DNA of 64,000 bases, from contig JAZDFV010000013.1 in NCBI GenBank assembly GCA_043807585.1, positions 2,039-66,038 on the forward strand, read 5' to 3'. The stretch is from Candidatus Jorgensenbacteria bacterium. Its GTDB lineage: Bacteria > Patescibacteriota > Minisyncoccia > UBA6257 > GWB1-50-10. Every line of letters starts with the position of its first letter. Position 1 is the stretch's first letter. A model generated the notes under the pieces. It did not search any database, was not told the DNA's origin, and saw only the letters and a list, made by a program, of their open reading frames with translations. Below are positions 14,846-60,390 of the stretch, piece after piece. Position numbers and translations under genes: made by a program.

Positions 14846-14890
14846 GATGACCATGACGATGACCATGACCATGACTATAACCATGACGAT
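14846..14890 (+). repeat. (ATGACN)n hexanucleotide tandem array in the lysS-serS spacer
   Basis: gatgaccatgacgatgaccatgaccatgactataaccatgacgat. Confidence 0.8.
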
Positions 14891-21713: not shown

Positions 21714-21714
21714 A

Positions 21715-21800
21715 ACGCGATGCGAATATACTAATGCATACTAATTATACGAATAAAGGAATTCTCCATTAGTAGTATTCGTATGAATTCGTATATTAGC
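21715..21800. repeat. AT-rich MITE-like hairpin repeat (family member 1)
   Basis: Ends 'gcgatgcgaatatactaatgcatactaat ... attcgtatattagcatcgcg' form a long imperfect inverted repeat. Homologous to 28829-28923 and 45368-45466. Confidence 0.6.
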
Positions 21801-21806
21801 ATCGCG

Positions 21807-21833
21807 TTGGCACTTGACTTGTCCGAGTGCCAA
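21807..21833. promoter_or_regulatory. CIRCE-like HrcA operator (TTGGCACTT-N9-GAGTGCCAA) with overlapping -10 'tatact'
   Basis: Inverted repeat close to the CIRCE consensus TTAGCACTC-N9-GAGTGCTAA. Upstream of the hrcA-grpE-dnaK operon. Confidence 0.7.
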
Positions 21834-21999
21834 TTCTATACTTGAAAGGCTTGGTTGGAGCAATGGGAGCCGTAGGCGAACCAGTGCTCCATTCCAAACT
21901 TTCACCCCGTTAGATAAGAATATGAAAACCGTGGCAGTAAACAGACATAACGTATATCGATTACTATCGGTCGGCGATTCCCTGTCCTCGCTATCTAAC

Positions 22000-22067
22000 G
22001 GGGTGCTCGATTTTGTAGATAAATTTTCTTCTTCTACAGACTCGAAAATTTGTACAAAATCGGCATG
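22000..22067 (+). promoter_or_regulatory. Conserved ~68-nt leader / translation-start element (copy upstream of hrcA)
   Basis: ggggtgctcgattttgtagataaattttcttcttctacagactcgaaaatttgtacaaaatcggcATG. Same element precedes mraZ and ftsL. Preceded by a long IR (21903-21916 / 21992-22005). Confidence 0.6.
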
Positions 22068-22754
22068 AGAGATCGCACGAAGTCCATCCTTGAAGGCGCG
22101 GTCAAGGAGTTTATCCGCACAGGAGAGCCCATCACTTCAGAGCATCTTTTCGATGCTTTTGAGTTCGGCATCAAGCCAGCCATGATCCGGTGGGAGCTTA
22201 AGGAGCTTTCCCGCGCCGGCTACTTTTCCCAAAGGCACCCCTCCGGGGGGCGGTTTCCCACCAACCGGGCGTACCGCTTCTATGTGCAATCGCTTCTCGG
22301 CGCCGGTGTTCCCTCAATGCGGGGGTCGCTCGAGAGAGCGCTGCATGGATTCTTGGGGGAAGGGCCGCGGGAGCTCGTGGGAGAGATGGCGGATTACCTC
22401 GGAATGTTCTCCGCCGTGTATGAACCGCGGGCGGACCACGTCTATGAGAGCGGGCTCGAGGACCTCATGGCGGAACTTGATCTTGAGAATCGTCGCGAGC
22501 TCATGGAAGTCATCCGCGATATTGAGCTCCTCCCGGAGCGGATTATGGAGCAGGGAACGTGGCGGGGAGAGCGCGAGTGGCCCCAGGTGTTTGTGGGGGG
22601 GAACCCCTTCACCGCCAGCAGGCATCTCTCGGTGGTGGCGGGCAGGGTGCGTGGCGGGGAGAAGCCTCTCCTCCTCTTGGCGGTGGGTCCCACGCGGATG
22701 GACTATGAAAAATCCTTGCGGCTCTTCCGCGCACTCTGTGATTCGGTTTCATAA
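22065..22754 (+). CDS. hrcA: Heat-inducible transcription repressor HrcA
   Basis: wHTH N-terminus 'GEPITSEHLFDAFEFGIKPAMIRWELKELSRAGY'. Operon with grpE and dnaK. CIRCE upstream. ATG at 22065 preferred over the TTG at 22050. Confidence 0.75.
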   Translation: MRDRTKSILEGAVKEFIRTGEPITSEHLFDAFEFGIKPAMIRWELKELSRAGYFSQRHPSGGRFPTNRAYRFYVQSLLGAGVPSMRGSLERALHGFLGEGPRELVGEMADYLGMFSAVYEPRADHVYESGLEDLMAELDLENRRELMEVIRDIELLPERIMEQGTWRGEREWPQVFVGGNPFTASRHLSVVAGRVRGGEKPLLLLAVGPTRMDYEKSLRLFRALCDSVS

Positions 22755-26294: not shown

Positions 26295-26544
26295 ACGCTG
26301 ATTTATGCGGATTTTGGCGGATTTATGCGGATAGTAGTGATGCGAATATACCAGGCGGCTACGAAATACGAAATAATACGAAAATACAATTTAGCTACGA
26401 AATACGAAAATAGTACGAATATACGAAATTGTTAATAAAACATGAAGTCGTTTTCGTATATTCGTAAGAAGTTCGTAATTCGTAGAGAAGCGGAGCGTTT
26501 CGTATATTCGGAATTAAATTCGTAATTCGTAGAGATATTTACCC

Positions 26545-29364: not shown

Positions 29365-30258
29365 TTAGGAAAGCTCCTTACGTACCTTGTCGTGGAGGGC
29401 CGCAAGTCCCGCGAGGAGCGTGAACTGCTGGGCGGGAGAATCCACGTTGTGGCAACTAAACTCATATCCACTTCCTTTATCGGGCGAGCATGAATATGAG
29501 GGATGAAGCCCACACGCGTCGCCGGGGCAGCTTACGTTCAACCATCCGCCCCTATAGGCGATATGCGCCGAAAAGCTGTGGTCATCGAGCGGTCCTCGGC
29601 CGAGCATATGGTAATAGGCGGTCCTCATTGCCTTTTCCATTTCTGGGATGACATAAACGTGCCGCTCGGGTAAATCCGTCACCTTCGAAGCGAGCCACGA
29701 AGTAAGCGGAACGCTATACATCCCGCCGAGGCTTCCTCCGTGCATGTCCCTCATCGTTAGCGTTTCCACGGAGAGGAGTTGTGGGAGCTTCGAGGAGGTT
29801 TCGGCGTCATTCAGGTAATTGAGCAGGGAGAAAAGGACAGTAAAGCTCGCCGAGACCGCGAACGCTTCGTGCCAGAGGTAGTTGTATTGCTTTCCGGTGC
29901 CGCCGCAGCGTAGGCATTCGCCGCCGAAAATTCTATCCTTCTTCTTTCCTTTGCAGGAGGGGCATACTTTCCCGACTCTTTGCTTGACGATCGGTGCGCT
30001 TGCCATCAGTTCGATGAATTCGCCGCGCGGGCCGCGATAGGTGAGCGCCCCTTCGAATCCGAACCCGTTCACGGGTTTCTCCGAGAAATTCTTGAAGTTG
30101 AATTCCGGATCGAAGTTTCGGACCATCGGCGAGTCAGGTTTGATTTGCTCGAACAATTTCAGCATATCTCGATGAATTCGGACAACGATTGCGGTTTTCT
30201 CCGGTAGCCAGGACAGTTCATACCAACAAGGCAGAACATCGTAGATGATGATTTTCAT
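29365..30258 (-). CDS. Hypothetical protein with CxxC...CxxC zinc-ribbon
   Basis: 297 aa; 'CPSCKGKKKDRIFGGECLRCGG'. No recognised family. Confidence 0.4.
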   Translation of the reverse strand: MKIIIYDVLPCWYELSWLPEKTAIVVRIHRDMLKLFEQIKPDSPMVRNFDPEFNFKNFSEKPVNGFGFEGALTYRGPRGEFIELMASAPIVKQRVGKVCPSCKGKKKDRIFGGECLRCGGTGKQYNYLWHEAFAVSASFTVLFSLLNYLNDAETSSKLPQLLSVETLTMRDMHGGSLGGMYSVPLTSWLASKVTDLPERHVYVIPEMEKAMRTAYYHMLGRGPLDDHSFSAHIAYRGGWLNVSCPGDACGLHPSYSCSPDKGSGYEFSCHNVDSPAQQFTLLAGLAALHDKVRKELS

Positions 30259-30374
30259 GAGCAGATCCCTCCCAAGTGTCTTTAGTTTTGTGATTCGTTG
30301 CTGGTTTTGAGACTACAGATTTTCAGGGGTTGCGTCAAGTATGGCGCGCGCGTTTTCGCCGCCATCCGGATGAT

Positions 30375-30408
30375 GTTAACAAATTACACGGCCGTGTAAT
30401 TTGTTAAC
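30375..30408. repeat. Perfect 34-nt palindrome gttaacaaattacacGGCCgtgtaatttgttaac flanking PaaX-like gene 2
   Basis: Cognate copy at 30985-31015. Third solo copy at 39593-39625. Confidence 0.6.
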
Positions 30409-30448
30409 ATAAGGTGTCTTGTGGAATTTCAGCACCGTCGGGCCCGGT

Positions 30449-30937: not shown

Positions 30938-30984
30938 ATTTTTTGTCCCTTCGTTTTTTACTTCTTTACTTTCGTATAATATAT

Positions 30985-31015
30985 TAACATTTTACACGGC
31001 CGTGTGAAATGTTAA
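30985..31015. promoter_or_regulatory. Palindrome ttaacattttacacGGCCgtgtgaaatgttaa overlapping the putative promoter of PaaX-like gene 2; putative operator
   Basis: Lies ~50 nt upstream of the minus-strand start. -10-like 'tatatt/tattatac' overlaps on the coding strand. Confidence 0.55.
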
Positions 31016-31026
31016 TAGTGCACAAA

Positions 31027-31962: not shown

Positions 31963-32132
31963 CTTGAACATTCAATTCACATTGCAAAGGCCGTAGGTTT
32001 TCCCGCATTCATCCCGAGCGAAGCGAGGTTAGGTAGGAGCAATCCCGCACATAACTTGTTATGTGCGTGGACGATCCCTACAGGGCGCACAGAAAAGAAA
32101 AAGGTAATAGACAATGTTAAAAGGTTGAAATT

Positions 32133-33193: not shown

Positions 33194-33430
33194 ATGAAAG
33201 GAAATTTATCAAATAAAATAGAACATTTAAGATATTTGCTTAGATGGAATCTTCTGCCATCCATAATTCTTTTTGGTGGAATTTATGTAGTTTTAGACCT
33301 TCGGTACACCGAACTTGGTTTTTTGCTATCTTTGGTTGGTGTTTTTTCTCTTGCTCTTTGGGCTAATCACAATCGCCCTAAGTCATACAGCGATTATCTA
33401 AAAAACATAGAACAAAAAGAAGAGAGATGA
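33194..33430 (+). CDS. Small two-TM membrane protein
   Basis: 78 aa; hydrophobic. Confidence 0.3.
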   Translation: MKGNLSNKIEHLRYLLRWNLLPSIILFGGIYVVLDLRYTELGFLLSLVGVFSLALWANHNRPKSYSDYLKNIEQKEER

Positions 33431-33705
33431 AAGATTTTTTCAGAATAATAAAGGAATACTTTATTCTAATTATTGGAATAGGTTTATTTACTTACGGTTT
33501 ATTTGGTTTTCATGCTGATGAAATTTGTGGTGAGGGAAGTTTAATGCCTGCAGGAACCCTGCCTTTACAGATTTTTGATAGATTAAAATGTATAGAACCC
33601 GCCATATTTTACTACTACGATCTCAACGCCTTAGTTTTAGTAACTACAGGAGCTATTTTGATAACTATTGGATTGTTAAAATTAAAAAGAAAAAATAGTG
33701 AGTGA
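33427..33705 (+). CDS. Small two-TM membrane protein
   Basis: 92 aa; start overlaps the previous ORF. Confidence 0.3.
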   Translation: MKDFFRIIKEYFILIIGIGLFTYGLFGFHADEICGEGSLMPAGTLPLQIFDRLKCIEPAIFYYYDLNALVLVTTGAILITIGLLKLKRKNSE

Positions 33706-34030
33706 AGTGATGGGATACACATAAGCCCCCCACTAAACAGGTTTTAATGTCCTCCTGCAGGGGACTGCGCCCGTGCGCCCAAACGACTTGCTAGGCCGGC
33801 TGTCTCTGATGGAAGTTCACCCCGTTGGATGCGAGAGCTATCTAACGGGGTGAACCTCACACATAACTCCTTATGTGTGGGGTGAACAACTTGTTGATAA
33901 GTCGGACGGGAAAATTTTTGAAACGTAGGTAAATAAACGATTTTCTTCTCCGTCCGCCGGCATCCGCCGACGGGCGGATTATTTTTGACAGAGTGGGAGA
34001 GTGGTGTATCTTAGTAGGGAAGTGGGGAAT

Positions 34031-34071
34031 TGTGGATAACTGTGTGGATAAGGGCCGAATCTGGGGATAAC
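34031..34071. promoter_or_regulatory. Cluster of three same-orientation DnaA-box-like 9-mers (TGTGGATAA x2, GGGGATAAC)
   Basis: Two perfect matches to the reverse complement of the TTATCCACA consensus, 12 nt apart, and one 7/9 match. Located ~200 nt upstream of mraZ. Confidence 0.45.
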
Positions 34072-34198
34072 TCCCGATTTTGCCCGATCCGCCAGCTGGC
34101 GGAGAGGTTACAAAATCGAGGACCCAGCACATAAGACATTTTGCTATGCATATTTCAAAGGAACAAAAACTGACCGTTTTTCGAAAGAACCTTATGTG

Positions 34199-34267
34199 CT
34201 GGGTGCTCAATTCCGTAGATAAATTTTTTTCGTCGACCGACTCAAAAATTTATACGTAATTGGCATG
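34199..34267 (+). promoter_or_regulatory. Conserved ~68-nt leader / translation-start element (copy upstream of mraZ)
   Basis: ctgggtgctcaattccgtagataaatttttttcgtcgaccgactcaaaaatttatacgtaattggcATG. Preceded by IR arms 34123-34135 / 34191-34203. Confidence 0.6.
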
Positions 34268-34696
34268 TTACTTGGAGAATACAGGCACAGCGTAGACCCG
34301 AAGGGACGAATCGCCATCCCCGCAAAGTTTCGCGGGAAGGTGGGGAGCGGCGCCATCATCACGCGGGGCTTGGACCACTGTCTTTTCGTATTCGGCGCCA
34401 AGGAGTGGGAGGCGCTTGCGGCAAAACTCACCGCGCTCCCCTTGGCCCAGGCGAATTCTCGCGCCTTTGCCCGCCTCATGCTTGCCGGTGCTTCCGATGT
34501 GGAGCTCGACACGCAGGGGCGGATTTTAATTCCTGACTACCTCCGCACCTACGCCGGCATCACGAAGCAGGCGGTGGTGGCGGGCGTGATGAACCGCATG
34601 GAGATTTGGGACGAGAAGGCGTGGGATAGCTATAAGGCGAAGACGGAATCCTCGTCGGACGAGATCGCGGAACAGTTGGGGGCGTTGGGGATTTAA
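34265..34696 (+). CDS. mraZ: Transcriptional regulator MraZ
   Basis: 'MLLGEYRHSVDPKGRIAIPAKFR' with duplicated MraZ/SpoVT-AbrB motifs. Confidence 0.85.
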   Translation: MLLGEYRHSVDPKGRIAIPAKFRGKVGSGAIITRGLDHCLFVFGAKEWEALAAKLTALPLAQANSRAFARLMLAGASDVELDTQGRILIPDYLRTYAGITKQAVVAGVMNRMEIWDEKAWDSYKAKTESSSDEIAEQLGALGI

Positions 34697-34846
34697 TGAC
34701 TATGACAATAACCATGACAATGAAGATAACCACGACTAATGACTATGACCAACTATGACTAATGACTATGACTAATGACCATGACTTATAACAAAGCGCA
34801 CGGTTCATAAGCAGGAGCTGTCATCGTCATACGTCATCGTCATTAG
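34696..34846. repeat. (ATGACN)n hexanucleotide array with complementary (GTCATC)n arm, forming a long spacer hairpin
   Basis: atgactatgacaataaccatgacaatga... then ...tgtcatcgtcatacgtcatcgtcat. Confidence 0.75.
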
Positions 34847-34849
34847 TGT

Positions 34850-35788
34850 ATGTTGCATACGCCCGTTCTTTTAGAAGAGGTAATAAGGGTGATGGAGCCG
34901 AAACCGGGTGATTTCATAATTGACGGCACGCTGGGGGGCGGCGGCCATGCGAGAGAGCTCGCAAAGCGCATAGGGCCAAGCGGGATGCTCCTCGGGATTG
35001 ACTGGGATGCCGATGCGGTGCGGCGCGCGAAAGAAACGCTTAGTACTCTGACAATCAAGCGTTTGGCGATTGTGCAGGGAAACTACGCGGAACTTTCGGC
35101 AGTGCTCGCAAAGGAAAAACTCCCGAAGGCGGACAGCTTACTCCTTGATCTTGGGCTTTCCTCCGACCAGCTTGCGGACTCGGGACGCGGATTCAGCTTT
35201 GAAGGAGACGAGCCGTTGGATATGCGTTACGACCCGAAGAGCGGCAACCCGTCGGCGGCGGAGGTGGTAAACGGCACGCGCGAGGAAGAGCTGGCGGATA
35301 TTATTTTCCGCTACGGCGAGGAACGGAACGCGCGGCGCATCGCGAAGGCGATCGTCGCGGCGCGGAGGAAAGAAAAAATTCTCCGCACACCTGACCTTAT
35401 ACGTGTCATTGAATCTGTTGTGCCGCGACCCTCCTTCGCAAAGCTTCCTCCTTCGCCAAAGCTTCGGCGGACAGGTCGGACGGGCAAGGGCAAGTTCCAC
35501 CCGGCGACCAAGACTTTCATGGCGCTCCGTATCTTCGTGAACCGTGAGTTTGAGAATCTTGAAACGATCTTAGAAAAACTTCCGGCGGTCGTGCGGCGCG
35601 GCGGACGCGCGGCTATCATCACTTTCCATTCGTTGGAAGACCGCATCGTGAAAAAGTGCTTCCAGGAACTTGTCAAATCAGGGAAAGCAACGCTTTTAAA
35701 CAAAAAACCCATCATCCCCACCCGTGAAGAAATTTTTAAAAATCCGAGAAGCCGTTCAGCGAAATTAAGGGCTTGCACCATAATTTAG
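34850..35788 (+). CDS. rsmH: 16S rRNA (cytosine1402-N4)-methyltransferase RsmH
   Basis: 'MLHTPVLLEEV...GTLGGGGHA' SAM-binding motif; follows mraZ. Confidence 0.9.
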   Translation: MLHTPVLLEEVIRVMEPKPGDFIIDGTLGGGGHARELAKRIGPSGMLLGIDWDADAVRRAKETLSTLTIKRLAIVQGNYAELSAVLAKEKLPKADSLLLDLGLSSDQLADSGRGFSFEGDEPLDMRYDPKSGNPSAAEVVNGTREEELADIIFRYGEERNARRIAKAIVAARRKEKILRTPDLIRVIESVVPRPSFAKLPPSPKLRRTGRTGKGKFHPATKTFMALRIFVNREFENLETILEKLPAVVRRGGRAAIITFHSLEDRIVKKCFQELVKSGKATLLNKKPIIPTREEIFKNPRSRSAKLRACTII

Positions 35789-35925
35789 AGCCGTTGCGGC
35801 GAAGAAATTATGGCTTGCAAACCTTACCGAGCACATAAAAGTATGAAAACATCAACCAATCTTAAAGTAATTGCTTCTCGATTGAACGATTTGTACCAAG
35901 AAAGTCGCTTGGTTACTTTTATGTG

Positions 35926-35994
35926 CTGGGTGCGCGATTCTGTAGACGAATTTTCTTCGCCTGCTGACTCGAAAATTCGTACATAATCGGCATG
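35926..35994 (+). promoter_or_regulatory. Conserved ~68-nt leader / translation-start element (copy upstream of ftsL-like gene)
   Basis: ctgggtgcgcgattctgtagacgaattttcttcgcctgctgactcgaaaattcgtacataatcggcATG. Preceded by IR arms 35829-35843 / 35914-35929. Confidence 0.6.
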
Positions 35995-36303
35995 ACCATC
36001 ATCCAACCACACAAGAACAGGCCCCTCATGCGCTTTCTCCTCCTGCTTTTTCTGCTCCTCGCGGGGGGCGGGGTATTCTATGTTTTCGAGTACAACGCGG
36101 TTGCGGAAGCCCGCCAGGGGATAGCTGACGCGAAGGAGGCGCTCGTAAAGGCGCAGGCGTCGAGTGCCGACCTTAAAGATACGTTCTACCGCATGGTTGA
36201 CCCCAGCGTATTGAAGTCGGTGGCGACGGCGCGTGGATTTACGCTCGTACGCGATCCCCAGTATCTCCAGAGCGCGCCATGGCTTTCCGCTTCATCACGC
36301 TAA
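35992..36303 (+). CDS. ftsL: Cell division protein FtsL-like (small bitopic membrane protein)
   Basis: Short cytoplasmic tail, one TM segment, periplasmic coiled-coil. Position between rsmH and ftsI. Confidence 0.45.
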   Translation: MTIIQPHKNRPLMRFLLLLFLLLAGGGVFYVFEYNAVAEARQGIADAKEALVKAQASSADLKDTFYRMVDPSVLKSVATARGFTLVRDPQYLQSAPWLSASSR

Positions 36304-39592: not shown

Positions 39593-39625
39593 GTTAACAA
39601 ATTACACGGCCGTGTAATTTGTTAA
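39593..39625. repeat. Solo copy of the palindrome gttaacaaattacacGGCCgtgtaatttgttaa
   Basis: Identical to the left palindrome of the PaaX-like gene 2 locus (30375-30408), but no PaaX-like gene is adjacent. Confidence 0.7.
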
Positions 39626-42128: not shown

Positions 42129-45100
42129 ATGCCCGAAGACAAGAAAACCCCGTCATACAGCGCCAAGGACATCTATGTTTTGGAGGGGCTCCAGCCGGTG
42201 CGGAAGCGCCCCGGGATGTACATTGGTTCCACTGGCGTGGACGGTTTGCATCACCTCATCTGGGAGGTTGTGGACAATTCCATCGACGAGGCGATGGCCG
42301 GTTATGCCAAGAACATCGCGGTGGAGATCAAAAAGGGGAGCCGCATCGCCGTCACCGACGACGGCCGCGGAATCCCGGTGGACTTGCATGCCCAGACCAA
42401 GAAATCGGCCCTGGAGACCGTGATGACCACGCTCCACGCGGGGGGCAAGTTCGGCGGCGAATCCTATAAGGTCTCCGGCGGCCTGCACGGCGTGGGGGTC
42501 TCGGTGGTGTGCGCCCTCTCGCAGTGGATGCGGGCGGAGGTTTGCCGCGACGGAATGCGCTATGTACAGGAGTATGAGCGGGGCCGGCCGAAGTTCTCGG
42601 TGAGGAAGGAGGGGAAGTGCGGGCGGAACGGAACCAAGGTGATATTCGACCCGGACCCCGAGATATTTCAGAAAATAGAATTTGACCTCAAGAAGGTGCT
42701 GGACCACCTCCGCCAGCAGGCGTACCTCACCAAAGGGGTGCGTATCGAGCTCCTCGATGAGCGTGGCCTGTCTGCGCAGGCAGGAGAGGCGCCGCTCCGC
42801 TACGGGTTCTGCTTTGGGGGCGGGCTCCAGTCCTACATCCGCTACCTCGTGGGCGACACCAAGACCATCCAGGATCACCCGTTCTACACGCACCGCGAGG
42901 TGGAGGGGGTTGATGTGGAAGCCACCTTCGTCTATGCGGACGATATGGAGAACGAGGAGATAAGCTTTGCGAATAACATCTATACCCCCGACGGCGGCAT
43001 GCACCTCACTGGTTTCAGGTCAGCTCTTACCCGCACCCTGAACGACTACGCGCGGCGGGAGGGCTACCTCAAGGAATCGGAGGAGAACCTCACCGGGGAC
43101 GACGTGCGCGAAGGGCTCATCGCCGCCGTGTCCATCAAGATCCGCGAGCCTCAGTTCGAGGGGCAGACGAAAGCGCGGCTGGGGAACACGGAGGCGCGCA
43201 CCGCCGTGGAGGCGGCCGTGGCGGAGGGCTTGAAAGAATTCCTAGAACGCTACGGAGCGGACGCGCGGGTCATCCTGGAGAGGAATCTCCTCGCGGCGAA
43301 GGCGCGCAAGGCCGCGAAGGCCGCGAAGGACACCGTGCTTCGGAAAGGGGCCCTGGAGGGCCTCACCTTGCCGGGCAAATTGGCCGATTGCAGCTCGCGC
43401 AAGGCGGAGGAATCGGAACTCTTCATAGTTGAGGGCGATTCCGCAGGCGGCTGCTTTTTTGGAAAAACTGAGGTCGCATTAATGGATGGCAGAAATTTAT
43501 CTTTTGAAAAAATAGTTGAAGAACATAGTCAAGGCAAAAAAAATTATTGCTATACAATTAAAAATGATGGTAGCGTTGGTGTCGAGTTAATAAAAAATCC
43601 AAGGAAAACAAAACAAAATGCAGAAGTTATTAAAGTTATTTTAGACAATGATGAAGAAATAATCTGTACTCCGGACCATAAATTCGTATTGAGAGACGGA
43701 GGATATAAAATGGCGAAAGATTTAAAACCGGAAGATTCTTTGATGCCATTACATAAAAAACTTTCAAAAATAGAAGAGCGAATAACAATTGAAGGATACG
43801 AAATGGTTTTGAATCCGCGAAATTTAAAATGGATTTTTACTCATTTGTTATCTGATAAATATAATCTTGAAAACGGCATCTATTCAGAAATCGGCGGTTG
43901 TAATAAACATCACGTTGATTTTAATAAATTAAATAACAATCCGGATAATATAATAAGGATGACCAGAGAAGAACATTTTGAGTATCATAGAAAAATGATA
44001 GAATTTGGGTTGCACAGAGAAGATATAAAGGAAAAATCTAAAAAAGCTCACAGGACAAAAGAATATAGGGAAAAAGTGAGTCAAATTATGGGTACTCCCG
44101 AAATGAGAGTGATGCTGAGCGAAAGAGCTAAAAAGCAGTGGCAGAGCGCAGAATACAAGAATTTTATGGTCGGGAAATTCCTCGAATTCTACAGGAATAA
44201 TTCAGAGTACCGAGAGAAAAATAATAAGCTTTTAGATAAGGTCCAGAAAGAATATTGGGCAAGCGGGGAAAATAAAAAGAAGCAGGCTGAAAGGGTTAAA
44301 AAATATTTTGAATTGCATCCGGAAAAACGAAAGGAACTTTCAACGCTCGCACGAACGCAGTGGCAAAATGAAAATTTGCGCCAGTGGCGCTCGGAACGAA
44401 CCAAAAAACAGTGGTCGCCCGAATTTCGGAAAAATCGGAAAATCGCATATAACGAAACATATCTCGCGAAAGCAATGCGGGTATTACGCAATTTTTATGA
44501 ATACACCGGCGAAGTTTCCGTTGAAAAATACAACGCTTTCCGCCGGCAAACGAACGACAAATCACTACTGCGATTTGATACGATTGTCAGCAGGTTTTTC
44601 GGCGGCGAAAGGGAGCGTCTCGTTGATGCCGTAATTCACTACAACCATAAAATAGTCCGTATTGAAGCGGTATTGGAAAAGATGGATGTGTACGACCTTG
44701 AAGTGCCCGGTACCCATAACTTCGCTTTGGCCTCGGGTGTTTTCGTTCATAACAGCGCGAAGCAGGGCCGCGACCGCCGGTTCCAGGCCATTCTGCCTCT
44801 GAAAGGGAAGATCCTGAACGTAGAAAAGGCGCGCATCGACAAGATGCTCGCGAACAAGGAGATACGTTCCCTCGTGATAGCGCTGGGAACGGCCATCGCC
44901 GAAAATTTCGATCTCTCAAAGCTCCGCTACGGGAAGGTCATCCTTATGACCGATGCCGACGTGGACGGCGCCCACATCCGGACGCTCCTCCTTACCCTCT
45001 TCTACCGCTACTTCCCGCAGATCATTGAACACGGGCACCTCTACATCGCCCAGCCGCCGCTCTTTCGCCTCCAGCGGGGGAAGGAGGTGCGCTACGCGTG

Positions 45101-45365
45101 GAGCGATGCCGAGCGCGACAAGGTGACAAAGGCGCTGGGCGGCGATAGCGTCGGCATCCAGCGCTACAAGGGGCTTGGGGAGATGAACCCCACCCAACTC
45201 TGGGAGACGACACTTGACCCCGCGACGCGGGTTTTGAAGCAGGTCATGGTGGAGGATGCTGTGGAAGCGGATCACCTCTTTGACATCCTCATGGGTGAGG
45301 CTGTGGAGCCGCGGAAGAATTTCATCCAGGCACACGCGGTCATGGTGAAGAACCTTGACATTTAA
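42129..45365 (+). CDS. gyrB: DNA gyrase subunit B, interrupted by an in-frame intein
   Basis: GHKL ATPase and Toprim motifs ('EGDSAGG | [24 protein letters not shown]'). 644-aa extein plus 434-aa intein. Confidence 0.9.
   Translation: [1078 protein letters not shown]
43452..44753 (+). mobile_element. Class 1 intein with HNH-type homing endonuclease domain inserted in the GyrB Toprim motif
   Basis: Starts with Cys after 'GDSAGG'. Block B 'TPDHKF'. Ends 'VFVHN' followed by Ser+1. Central '[30 protein letters not shown]' HNH motif (43899-43988) plus repeated QWQ-containing helices. Strongly AT-rich relative to the exteins. Confidence 0.85.
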
Positions 45366-59560: not shown

Positions 59561-59740
59561 ATGACCCGCTTAAGCCATCACGCAAAATCAAAAGTAGGGA
59601 GACGCCGTTCGCAGCTCGCGATGAAGAAACTTTCCATCACCGTGTGCCCGAACTGCAAAGCTCCTACCTTCGCCCATCACGTGTGCTCCTCCTGCGGTAC
59701 GTATCTGCGCCAACCAAAGAAGAAACGGGCGGAAAAGTAG
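59561..59740 (+). CDS. rpmF: 50S ribosomal protein L32
   Basis: 59-aa ORF 'MTRLSHHAKSKVGRRRSQ...CPNCKAPTFAHHVCSSCGTY' with the zinc-ribbon L32 pattern. Not in the supplied ORF track (<60 aa). Confidence 0.65.
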   Translation: MTRLSHHAKSKVGRRRSQLAMKKLSITVCPNCKAPTFAHHVCSSCGTYLRQPKKKRAEK

Positions 59741-59961
59741 AGTTTGAACGTGTTCCGTCACCTCGCACCTTCCAACCCTTCCTCATTCTACCCCGCACCA
59801 TTTCCATTCATGATGAACGATAACACAACACGGTTAGAGCGAGTTCGCCTTTCGGCTCTGATGGAGCACCGGCAGAATTCCTGCCAGAAATGGTACGGGG
59901 TGCTCGTTTTTGCGGCTAAATTTCCGGCGCGTGCTCGCTTGGAAATTTAGATAAAAACGGC

Positions 59962-60390
59962 ATGGCCACCCGGCACCTTATCAGGACCATCGTGCTCCAA
60001 TCCCTCTATGAATGGGATTTTTACAAACACGAAAGCGATTTGGAAAAGATCATGGAGCGGAACCTCAAGGAGTTCGGGCCTGGGATCGATGAGCCGGAGT
60101 TCGCGTGGCGCATCGCAAAGGGGATCGTGGAACATCTCCCGGAGATCGACGGCATCATCGGAAAGGCGGCCCCCGAATGGCCGGTGGAACAGATCGCCAT
60201 CATTGACCGGAACGTCCTGCGCATCGGGCTCTACGAGTTGCTCTACGCCAACAAAGAAGAGGTGCCCCCCAAAGTGGCCATCAATGAGGCAATTGAGGTT
60301 GCAAAGAGCTATGGCGGGTTGAACTCGCCGAAGTTCGTGAATGGCGTCCTCGGGACCGTGTACCGCGAAATGGTGGCGCCGAAGGAATAA
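59962..60390 (+). CDS. nusB: Transcription antitermination factor NusB
   Basis: All-helical 142 aa; '[13 protein letters not shown]...'. Confidence 0.8.

Follow-up and report, generated by a model that had tools for sequence, protein, structure and literature searches.

A composite, mobile-like intergenic element carrying a short open reading frame abuts start codons in a Candidatus Jorgensenbacteria genome and other Patescibacteria

Correia elements, which are miniature inverted-repeat transposable elements (MITEs) of Neisseria, and the REP/BIME, ERIC and RUP repeats are small, multi-copy intergenic sequences that form hairpins, are co-transcribed, are polymorphic in their presence or absence, and can affect expression or mRNA processing. 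We describe here an element of ~150–280 nt, composed of three hairpins (P1, P2 and P3), that recurs in a 64,000-nucleotide stretch of contig JAZDFV010000013.1 (the whole of the DNA analyzed, hereafter the window) from a Candidatus Jorgensenbacteria metagenome-assembled genome (MAG), whose DnaK is 100% identical to an NCBI entry. It is likewise small, multi-copy, hairpin-forming, co-transcribed and polymorphic in its presence, and it has further MITE- and REP-like traits: many intergenic copies per genome, and presence or absence at orthologous sites. Its P2 arms are exact inverted repeats. Whereas the distance and orientation of Correia, REP, ERIC and RUP sequences relative to genes are variable, this element has a fixed orientation and lies flush with an ATG at one end and with a stop codon or transcription start (+1) at the other. 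TA duplications and clear terminal inverted repeats mark the Correia elements, whereas no duplication was found here and a maintained open reading frame (ORF) is carried.

Three other groups of systems bear comparison. The free-standing GIY-YIG genes (seg) of T4-like phages are similar as small GIY-YIG ORFs between co-oriented essential genes, with a stem at the start and a variable presence; however, most copies of the element, including all four in the window, are without a nuclease gene, they occupy many loci of a cellular genome, the GIY-YIG proteins seen here are 72–76 aa long with the catalytic domain only, and homing is here a supposition. Termination-reinitiation systems, including those dependent on an upstream ORF (uORF) and the cauliflower mosaic virus ribosome shunt, share a short ORF that ends a few nucleotides before, or overlaps, a start lacking a Shine-Dalgarno (SD) sequence beside a stable structure; here, in contrast, the putative coupling cistron would come from a mobile repeat, and it runs through the hairpin instead of ending before it. 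Intervening sequences of 23S rRNA and the intergenic RNase III sites of phage T7 are likewise perfect stems that lie in transcribed spacers and lend themselves to excision with no subsequent ligation, but in the element a maintained ORF spans the stem, and any cleavage would be hypothetical. None of the nearest systems (Correia/REP/BIME/ERIC repeats, T4-like GIY-YIG genes and uORF reinitiation) combines flush placement, fixed orientation, three covarying hairpins and a maintained pass-through ORF. Rfam 15 contains no matching family (at the gathering threshold there are two tRNAs only, and at E<=10 generic hairpins far below threshold), and a limited search of the searchable literature on Parcubacteria, Patescibacteria and the candidate phyla radiation (CPR) found no description. 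The element is therefore apparently undescribed, and apparently belongs among the bacterial miniature palindromic insertion elements.

Architecture and conservation of the element

The 3' module, P3, is a 67-nt motif first described in an earlier note on this DNA as three near-identical sequences ending in the start codons of hrcA, mraZ and ftsL. The consensus given there matches the window three times with no mismatches (copies 1–3; Table 1) and shuffled windows not at all, and the last three bases of every copy are the start codon ATG of a gene, with hrcA and mraZ assigned by Pfam and ftsL by position only (its ORF sits between rsmH and an ORF of the size of a penicillin-binding protein). 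The long hairpins said to precede each copy are present with exact arms (P2 in Table 1), as are the miniature hairpins at 32046–32067 and 33858–33880. The internal hairpin shows the compensatory change claimed for it, since ta/ta pairs are cg/cg in the ftsL copy, and the pairs 28–44 and 9–61 covary too; the view of a shared structured leader abutting the start codon stands, with no SD sequence and a covarying hairpin. A covariance model built from 32 distinct P3 copies identifies a fourth, diverged copy in the window (57 bits, E 5e-13), which ends in the ATG of nusB and lies downstream of rpmF (59561–59740, Ribosomal_L32p). An ATG-initiated ORF runs through the motif in every window copy.

The 32 distinct copies, drawn from many genomes, have a mean column identity of 93%, with 97.6% of cells paired and both-side changes in seven pairs, a level of pairing and compensation reached in 0 of 500 shuffles. 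A 2-nt purine bulge is conserved. Compensatory changes separate at least two subfamilies, of which subfamily I has the consensus sequence, and subfamily II (GGGGTGCTCGTTTTTGYGGCTAAA..AGAYAAAAACGGCATG) includes the window nusB copy, an rpsH copy in locus L036 and the hrcA copy of L058. The last P3 pair is G5–C64, the ATG starts immediately 3' of it, and the 3' arm has no SD-like sequence. In 45 of 53 complete copies the ATG follows directly and in seven it is 2 nt later; the base after the CGGC at the P3 end is always A. We also note that P3 columns 3–5, at the P2/P3 junction, are an in-frame GTG in 25/32 copies and ATG in 5/32 (these have a T in the 5' arm of P2 that compensates), so that P3 alone is readable as an 18-codon mini-cistron.

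The other two modules are conserved in structure. P1 is a 57–66 nt hairpin (AAGGGCTT...AAACCTTTA) whose 5' end lies at the upstream stop codon or the transcription start; its sequence is variable, but the P1 family alignment has compensatory changes in 15/22 pairs. P2 has the form 5'-CCC(C)...(G)GGG-3' and is an exact inverted repeat of 6–20 nt in 50/54 copies, with many different sequences. Folds leave virtually no linkers between the helices. The P2 arm sequence of copy 1 is found also in L004, L015, L021, L032, L034 and L041, and L028 has a P2 and loop related to those of copy 4, in which P1 (59739–59780) is degenerate. A near-invariant P3 consensus occurring side by side, within single genomes, with diverged yet folded copies suggests that constraint acts on two levels, one on the exact sequence for propagation of the element, and one on the hairpin, open frame and flush ATG junction for host expression.

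Insertion, cargo and distribution

Close relatives of the window genome differ in whether the hrcA site is occupied. Two are empty, L056 (DnaK 92% identical to that of the window), which reads TATACT-gaacggta-ATG, and L059 (81%), which reads TATACT-agacact-GTG; both have the same controlling inverted repeat of chaperone expression (CIRCE) and a TATACT only 7–8 nt from the hrcA start codon, a leaderless geometry. The window itself (DnaK 100%) is filled, reading TATACT-tga-(220-nt element)-ATG, as is L058 (91%), which reads TATACA-atta-(different version)-ATG and whose element has a different P1, P2 arms CCCCGCCCTCTA/TAGAGGGCGGGG, a 47-codon ORF and a subfamily II P3. Because the orthologous hrcA is empty in close relatives, the element is an insertion, by which a leaderless gene has acquired a 220-nt leader. 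Junctions in ribosomal-protein operons behave similarly, being 1–12 nt long when empty and 190–225 nt when filled, and the filled set differs between related genomes. Contig Ga0082335_1000067 (320 kb) has at least five copies with near-identical P2, loop and P3 but different P1. Gain and loss between close relatives, in the manner of mobile DNA, appears well supported by these site comparisons, and it is very probable that this is an intergenic insertion element, composite and mobile-like, which is transcribed in leaders. The earlier note had suggested, as one possibility, a promoter embedded in a mobile mini-element; the second part of that suggestion comes near to what the data show, and the promoter part is weakened by the evidence given below.

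P2 loops fall into three length classes, of 2–16, 70–93 and 220–272 nt, and the longest hold a GIY-YIG gene (PF01541, Pfam). Such a gene lies inside P2 in L009, L044 and L053 and adjoins P2 in L002 and L037; there is none in the four window copies. The L009 ORF starts 6 nt past the left arm, stays in frame across the right arm and P3, and has its TAA stop 5 nt before the downstream ATG, and the L053 cassette has a full P1 and a diverged P3. A GIY-YIG protein search gave 482 matches, mostly of 72–76 aa, and four further homologous loci that were examined are all bracketed by the same 11-bp inverted repeat (CCCCGCCCTCT...AGAGGGCGGGG). Three of these have co-oriented housekeeping neighbors (murA|mreB, a second GIY-YIG gene|pilM, and groEL|rpsP), and the called neighbors of the fourth (L055) have no Pfam matches; the murA|mreB junction carries an element of the uORF type in another genome. 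The GIY-YIG cassettes (L048, L052, L053, L055 and that at 4165 in L009) are compact, with the start codon 0–7 nt after the left arm and a TAG stop overlapping the right arm. The 70–93-nt loops are 40% A and 16% G, with a frequent AAGTCG motif in varying reading frames. We considered whether they are deletion remnants of GIY-YIG cassettes and rejected this, as an nhmmer search with a profile of six cassettes gave nothing above shuffled controls. That P2 can carry cargo, namely nothing, an A-rich 70–93-nt segment, or a GIY-YIG nuclease gene, is well supported.

The covariance model gives 54 P3 copies in total, from the window and 47 loci of Patescibacteria MAGs and metagenomes. An exact-pattern scan of one genome per species found 15 Patescibacteria MAGs and one chance match, and a metagenome scan with the 5' half of the motif only added 31 further loci, where the 3' half, on which the search placed no demand, is conserved once more, as is the ATG; no copy was found in viral contigs. 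Copies are dense, with four in the 64-kb window and at least six on one 320-kb contig (five by exact pattern and one diverged). The P3 consensus is common to MAGs labelled Jorgensenbacteria, Wolfebacteria, Liptonbacteria and Paceibacterota, with adjacent ribosomal-protein N-termini that are visibly different. The downstream genes (by Pfam) encode ribosomal proteins (S10, S3, S19, L22, L16, S14, S8, L6, S13, S11, S9, S18, L33, S12, S7 and L10), other translation and transcription proteins (EF-G, RRF, NusA, NusB and PheT), chaperone, secretion and shape proteins (GroES, ClpB/C-type ATPases, HrcA, SecA, MreB and MraZ), and a PilB-type ATPase, a VirD4-like protein and a glycosyltransferase. With this broad range of downstream genes the element is not specific to heat shock or division, and the specific control of heat-shock and division operons proposed in the earlier note does not hold: there is a nusB copy in the window itself, and translation genes predominate downstream across Parcubacteria. 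The element is always in the orientation of the gene and spans from the previous stop codon or predicted +1 up to the ATG, and the view that it is an insertion cassette of Parcubacteria/Patescibacteria that fills the transcribed spacer exactly is well supported.

Known types of regulatory sites lie ahead of the element. At hrcA, CIRCE and an overlapping sigma-70-like promoter precede copy 1 (Table 1), and transcription is predicted to begin within the first bases of P1. At mraZ a promoter is followed by direct repeats of the form GTGG(G/A)(G/A)ATAA at 34019–34078 (TGTGGATAA twice, TGGGGATAA and GTGGGGAAT), which are present also upstream of the L007 element; these look like MraZ operators and resemble DnaA boxes too. 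CIRCE-like operators precede the element at groES (L010) and at a clpB/C-type gene (L043). At rplJ (L024 and L025; about 1100–1600 in L024) a structured leader with an intrinsic terminator at its end lies ahead of the element, with gcctgccgagg common to both; it has no Rfam match at the gathering threshold and is probably an L10-leader-like attenuator. Because these promoters, operators and the rplJ leader are all upstream of it, the element should form part of the transcripts, either in regulated 5' leaders or in the spacers of operons.

A short open reading frame and its possible role

A uORF of 37–63 codons runs from an ATG in the P2 loop through the P2 3' arm and P3 in 28 of 33 distinct long-loop copies, as against 4.7 expected from loop shuffles. 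Its stop falls within 13 nt, on either side, of the first base of the gene's ATG, mostly 4–13 nt upstream or overlapping the ATG (mode 5 nt before), so the placing of a uORF stop near or over the start is maintained beyond chance, and the distance from stop to ATG equals the native cistron spacing (1–12 nt) in ribosomal-protein operons. The frame is kept open in diverged P3 copies though the encoded tail differs from VLDSVDKFSSSTDSKIYT, the N-terminal parts are unrelated between families, and L014 and L016 differ by four nonsynonymous changes and one synonymous. Gene callers almost never call these uORFs; among 5.8 billion predicted proteins there are four of them, unnamed. The conserved feature, as judged from these comparisons, is predicted translation through P3 to a stop beside the ATG, and not a protein. 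The region upstream of the uORF start is predicted to be more open (P unpaired 0.53) than the one preceding the main ATG (0.32). A leader-peptide transcription attenuator was considered and rejected, as there is no terminator-like site at or after P3 and the ATG directly follows P3.

We tentatively propose, at a little under even odds, that the element is a mobile intergenic cassette whose own ORF re-delivers ribosomes to an SD-less ATG. In genomes whose mRNAs are mostly leaderless or have 1–12-nt stop-start spacers, and which rarely use SD sequences, an insertion of 150–280 nt would orphan the ATG, and the element would compensate by bringing its own short cistron. Ribosomes would load on the unstructured A-rich P2 loop, translate 37–63 codons through the P2 3' arm and P3 and thereby melt the hairpin, terminate 4–13 nt before the gene's ATG or overlapping it, and re-initiate at that ATG by termination-reinitiation, recreating the native coupled junction. 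The element would in this way repair the damage done by its own insertion to a leaderless or coupled start. That uORF-mediated coupling is the main function of the window copies is a narrower claim, to which we give slightly less credence still.

Several findings weigh against this proposal. Short-P2 copies without the long uORF keep the same P3 beside the ATG (groES in L010 and L042, clpB/C-type genes in L043 and L009, rpmG, rplJ and rpsL), and the uORF is therefore not the sole route to expression of the gene. The uORF is itself without an SD sequence, and about half of the copies have the uORF ATG 0–5 nt away from the P2 stem. A plus-strand signature is not seen: G.U pairs make up only ~5% and do not differ in frequency between the strands, the P2 stems are almost purely Watson-Crick, and comparison of both strands by folding energy or G.U counts found no advantage for the plus strand, so that the hairpins fit a role in DNA as well as in RNA. 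(The strand difference of P3 favors the minus strand and is uninformative, the sequences being near-identical, and the one possibly conserved G.U, at the P1 base, depends on the alignment register.) As for the mobility that the proposal presupposes, no target-site duplication is seen at the empty and filled hrcA and ribosomal-protein junctions, and no transposase was found. A wider formulation takes in the uORF-less copies: a mobile family would colonize the site just 5' of start codons and be harmless through its own translation adaptor, either a surrogate upstream cistron or, where there is no uORF, a closed hairpin making the adjacent AUG the first accessible nucleotide, read as a leaderless 5'-terminal AUG (structure-defined internal initiation). 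We regard this formulation as unlikely, at about one-half of the weight given to the coupling proposal.

A quite different role for P3 would be that of a portable leaderless promoter, in which the 3' arm (TACATAAT-CGGC-ATG) is the -10 and the loop TCTRCA a weak -35, the transcript starts from the A of the ATG, giving the gene a leaderless mRNA again despite the insertion, and the hairpin is incidental or insulating. Many window genes do have a TAnAAT box 3–8 nt before the ATG and no SD sequence, the empty hrcA sites have TATACT 7–8 nt before the start codon, and a promoter would be in keeping with the exact spacing between P3 and the ATG and with the A that always follows CGGC. Two diverged copies have good promoter geometry: that at 6917 in L026 (frr), which follows an intrinsic terminator, reads TTGCGC-17-TAGAAT-6-ATG, and that at 4851 in L013 reads TTCACA-16-TAATAA-7-ATG. 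In subfamily I the candidate -10 is CATAAT at 4 nt (or TACATA at 6 nt), with the weak TCTRCA upstream. However, a consensus scan does not call P3 and finds strong promoters upstream of the element, where CIRCE, the MraZ-box-like repeats and the attenuator-like rplJ leader are also kept, and a constitutive promoter at the ATG would bypass all of these. Subfamily II (nusB, rpsH and the L058 hrcA) offers nothing better than a poor TAGACA or GACAAA, P3 varies most in its -35 region, and neither the compensatory changes between copies within one genome nor the maintained uORF is explained. A promoter thus seems improbable, at roughly one chance in five.

Similarly doubtful, and to the same degree, is a cassette for mRNA punctuation and stability, in which RNase III would cut P2, P1 would shield the 3' end of the upstream mRNA from PNPase, and P3 would shield the downstream 5' end from RNase J. 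The P2 stems are suitable, being 7–20 bp and nearly pure Watson-Crick, the outer hairpins border on the stop codon (P1) and the ATG (P3), and the same 11-bp inverted repeat brackets every GIY-YIG cassette examined. All three nucleases are retained in CPR bacteria (PMC12641178). Their rRNA genes have to tolerate GIY-YIG-bearing insertions (PMC11270868, PMC12641178), which are not introns, and RNase III removes some of the intervening sequences of bacterial 23S rRNA (PMC11270868). Cutting at P2 would, however, sever the uORF, which is nonetheless maintained, and a 64-nt hairpin abutting an SD-less AUG would still need a means of initiation.

Somewhat less likely again is a purely selfish repeat acting at the DNA level, with its hairpins as substrates for a recombinase or nuclease (as single-stranded or cruciform DNA), the ATG placement being a tolerated site in a gene-dense genome with no positive role in expression. 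The absence of strand asymmetry and the low G.U content favor it, as do the conserved 2-nt purine bulge of P3, of a kind that proteins recognize on DNA hairpins, and the homogenized copies within a genome, presence/absence polymorphism and GIY-YIG association. It leaves unexplained, however, the maintained ORF with a stop beside the ATG, the exact 0-nt junction in 45/53 copies, and the retention of the fold and of the GGGTGCTC...GGCATG ends in diverged copies; no candidate enzyme was identified, and most copies have no GIY-YIG gene.

A functional family of small proteins of about 40–50 aa with the tail VLDSVDKFSSSTDSKIYT would account for the ORF being kept in 28/33 copies, but is very improbable, as subfamily II and frame-shifted variants have a wholly different tail, the families have N-terminal parts that are unrelated to one another and show mostly nonsynonymous differences, P3 is unchanged in copies without a start codon, and only four such proteins are among the 5.8 billion predicted. 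The chance of the RNA thermometer (or dedicated heat-shock and division regulator) raised in the earlier note is close to negligible despite the copies before hrcA, groES and clpB/C-type genes, since the ATG is outside a hairpin of ~20 bp with no SD sequence to mask, most copies precede ribosomal-protein (rpsJ, rpsC, rplF, rpsM), secA, mreB, nusA/B, fusA, frr and other housekeeping genes, and close relatives have no element at hrcA.

This is a new conserved non-coding element common to several Patescibacteria lineages, and it shows how selfish DNA can live inside the essential operons of 1-Mb genomes. It offers a handle on translation starts at internal and long-leader cistrons in SD-poor organisms with leaderless mRNAs that are not yet cultivable alone, and it is of use in annotation, as a marker of true start codons and as a guide to short ORFs, dozens per genome, that are not called. 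It could also be a portable expression cassette for future CPR genetic tools, and if initiation is defined by the adaptor or hairpin as considered above, it would represent a new way of starting translation.

Coordinates and minor observations

Table 1. Features of the P1-P2-P3 elements and their surroundings in the window.
Feature	Position	Strand	Description
CIRCE and promoter, copy 1	21807–21842	+	CIRCE 21807–21833, overlapped by sigma-70-like promoter TTGACT-17-TATACT (21814–21842)
P1 copy 1	21846–21902	+	AAGGCTTGG...CCAAACTTT, apical GCC-GTA-GGC mini-helix; fold, z -5.2 for whole element
P2 copy 1	21903–22005	+	Exact 14-nt arms CACCCCGTTAGATA / TATCTAACGGGGTG, 75-nt A-rich loop
uORF copy 1	21922–22068	+	48 codons, MKTVAVNRHN...DSKICTKSA; TGA overlaps hrcA ATG (ATGA)
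P3 copy 1	22001–22067	+	Ends in ATG of hrcA (22065–22754); covariance model 88.5 bits; Pfam
Solo P2-like hairpin	32046–32067	.	CGCACATAAC-tt-GTTATGTGCG, downstream of tRNA gene
Two tandem solo P2-like hairpins	33815–33880	.	CACCCCGTT...AACGGGGTG and CACACATAA-ctcc-TTATGTGTG
Promoter and repeats, copy 2	33985–34078	+	Promoter TTGACA-16-TATCTT (33985–34012), then MraZ-operator-like repeats (34019–34078), all upstream of element
P1-variant hairpin copy 2	34073–34121	+	CCCGATTTTG...CAAAATCGAGG; fold; matches P3 model in reverse orientation, E 0.0046
P2 copy 2	34122–34204	+	Exact 14-nt arms ACCCAGCACATAAG / CTTATGTGCTGGGT, 55-nt loop
uORF copy 2	34146–34259	+	37 codons; TAA 5 nt before mraZ ATG
P3 copy 2	34201–34267	+	Ends in ATG of mraZ (34265–34696); covariance model 91.5 bits; Pfam
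P1 copy 3	35767–35826	+	Starts inside last rsmH codons (stop 35786–35788); fold, P1 family covariation
P2 copy 3	35827–35930	+	Exact 14-nt arms AGCACATAAAAGTA / TACTTTTATGTGCT (35830–35843, 35914–35927), 70-nt loop
uORF copy 3	35843–35986	+	47 codons; ATG overlaps end of 5' arm; TAA 5 nt before ftsL ATG
P3 copy 3	35928–35994	+	Ends in ATG of ftsL-position gene (35992–36303); covariance model 90.2 bits
P2 copy 4	59791–59900	+	Arms CCCCGCACCATTTC / GAAATGGTACGGGG, one C.A mismatch
uORF copy 4	59810–59950	+	46 codons; TAG 11 nt before nusB ATG; peptide tail unlike copies 1–3
P3 copy 4, subfamily II	59898–59964	+	Ends in ATG of nusB (59962–60390); covariance model, Pfam

Reading of the whole element as a transposon with long terminal inverted repeats, in which P1 is the reverse complement of P3, was rejected as it holds for one subfamily only (z 4–6.6 in 7/50), and resemblances to tRNA, boxA and K-turn structures were seen by eye only, none of them convincing, and are not claimed. 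The segment 33815–33985 contains the tandem solo P2-like hairpins, an AT-tract hairpin that includes AAGTCGGA, and an intrinsic terminator (33962–33979 plus a T run), and this cluster, downstream of the ORF at 33427–33705, may represent a decayed element.

Most genes in the window have no SD sequence and have either a TAnAAT box 3–8 nt before the ATG or an overlap with the previous stop codon. A few have GGGAGGG 8–9 nt upstream (29365–30258 on the minus strand, and 42129–45365), and with SD-less and GGGAGGG starts both present, two modes of initiation coexist. Two start codons are directly preceded by runs of the heptamer ATGACGA / TCGTCAT (14850–14890 and 34810–34849), the two runs being oppositely oriented.

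Clusters of TACGAATATACGAAA / TTTCGTATATTCGTA repeats bracket the hrcA-grpE-dnaK-dnaJ operon, one just 5' of CIRCE (21714–21808) and the other just 3' of dnaJ (26414–26510). A perfect palindrome with 15–18-nt arms, TTAACAAATTACACG-gc-CGTGTAATTTGTTAA, occurs twice and the related TATTAACATTT...AAATGTTAATA once (30373–30410, 39594–39625 and 30982–31017), and may be the operator of a putative regulator. Finally, a second conserved intergenic insert of ~40 nt, with three (A/T)AGGACCAAT-like units, is located between ribosomal-protein genes at two sites in L036 and in L041, and it too ends close to the next ATG.

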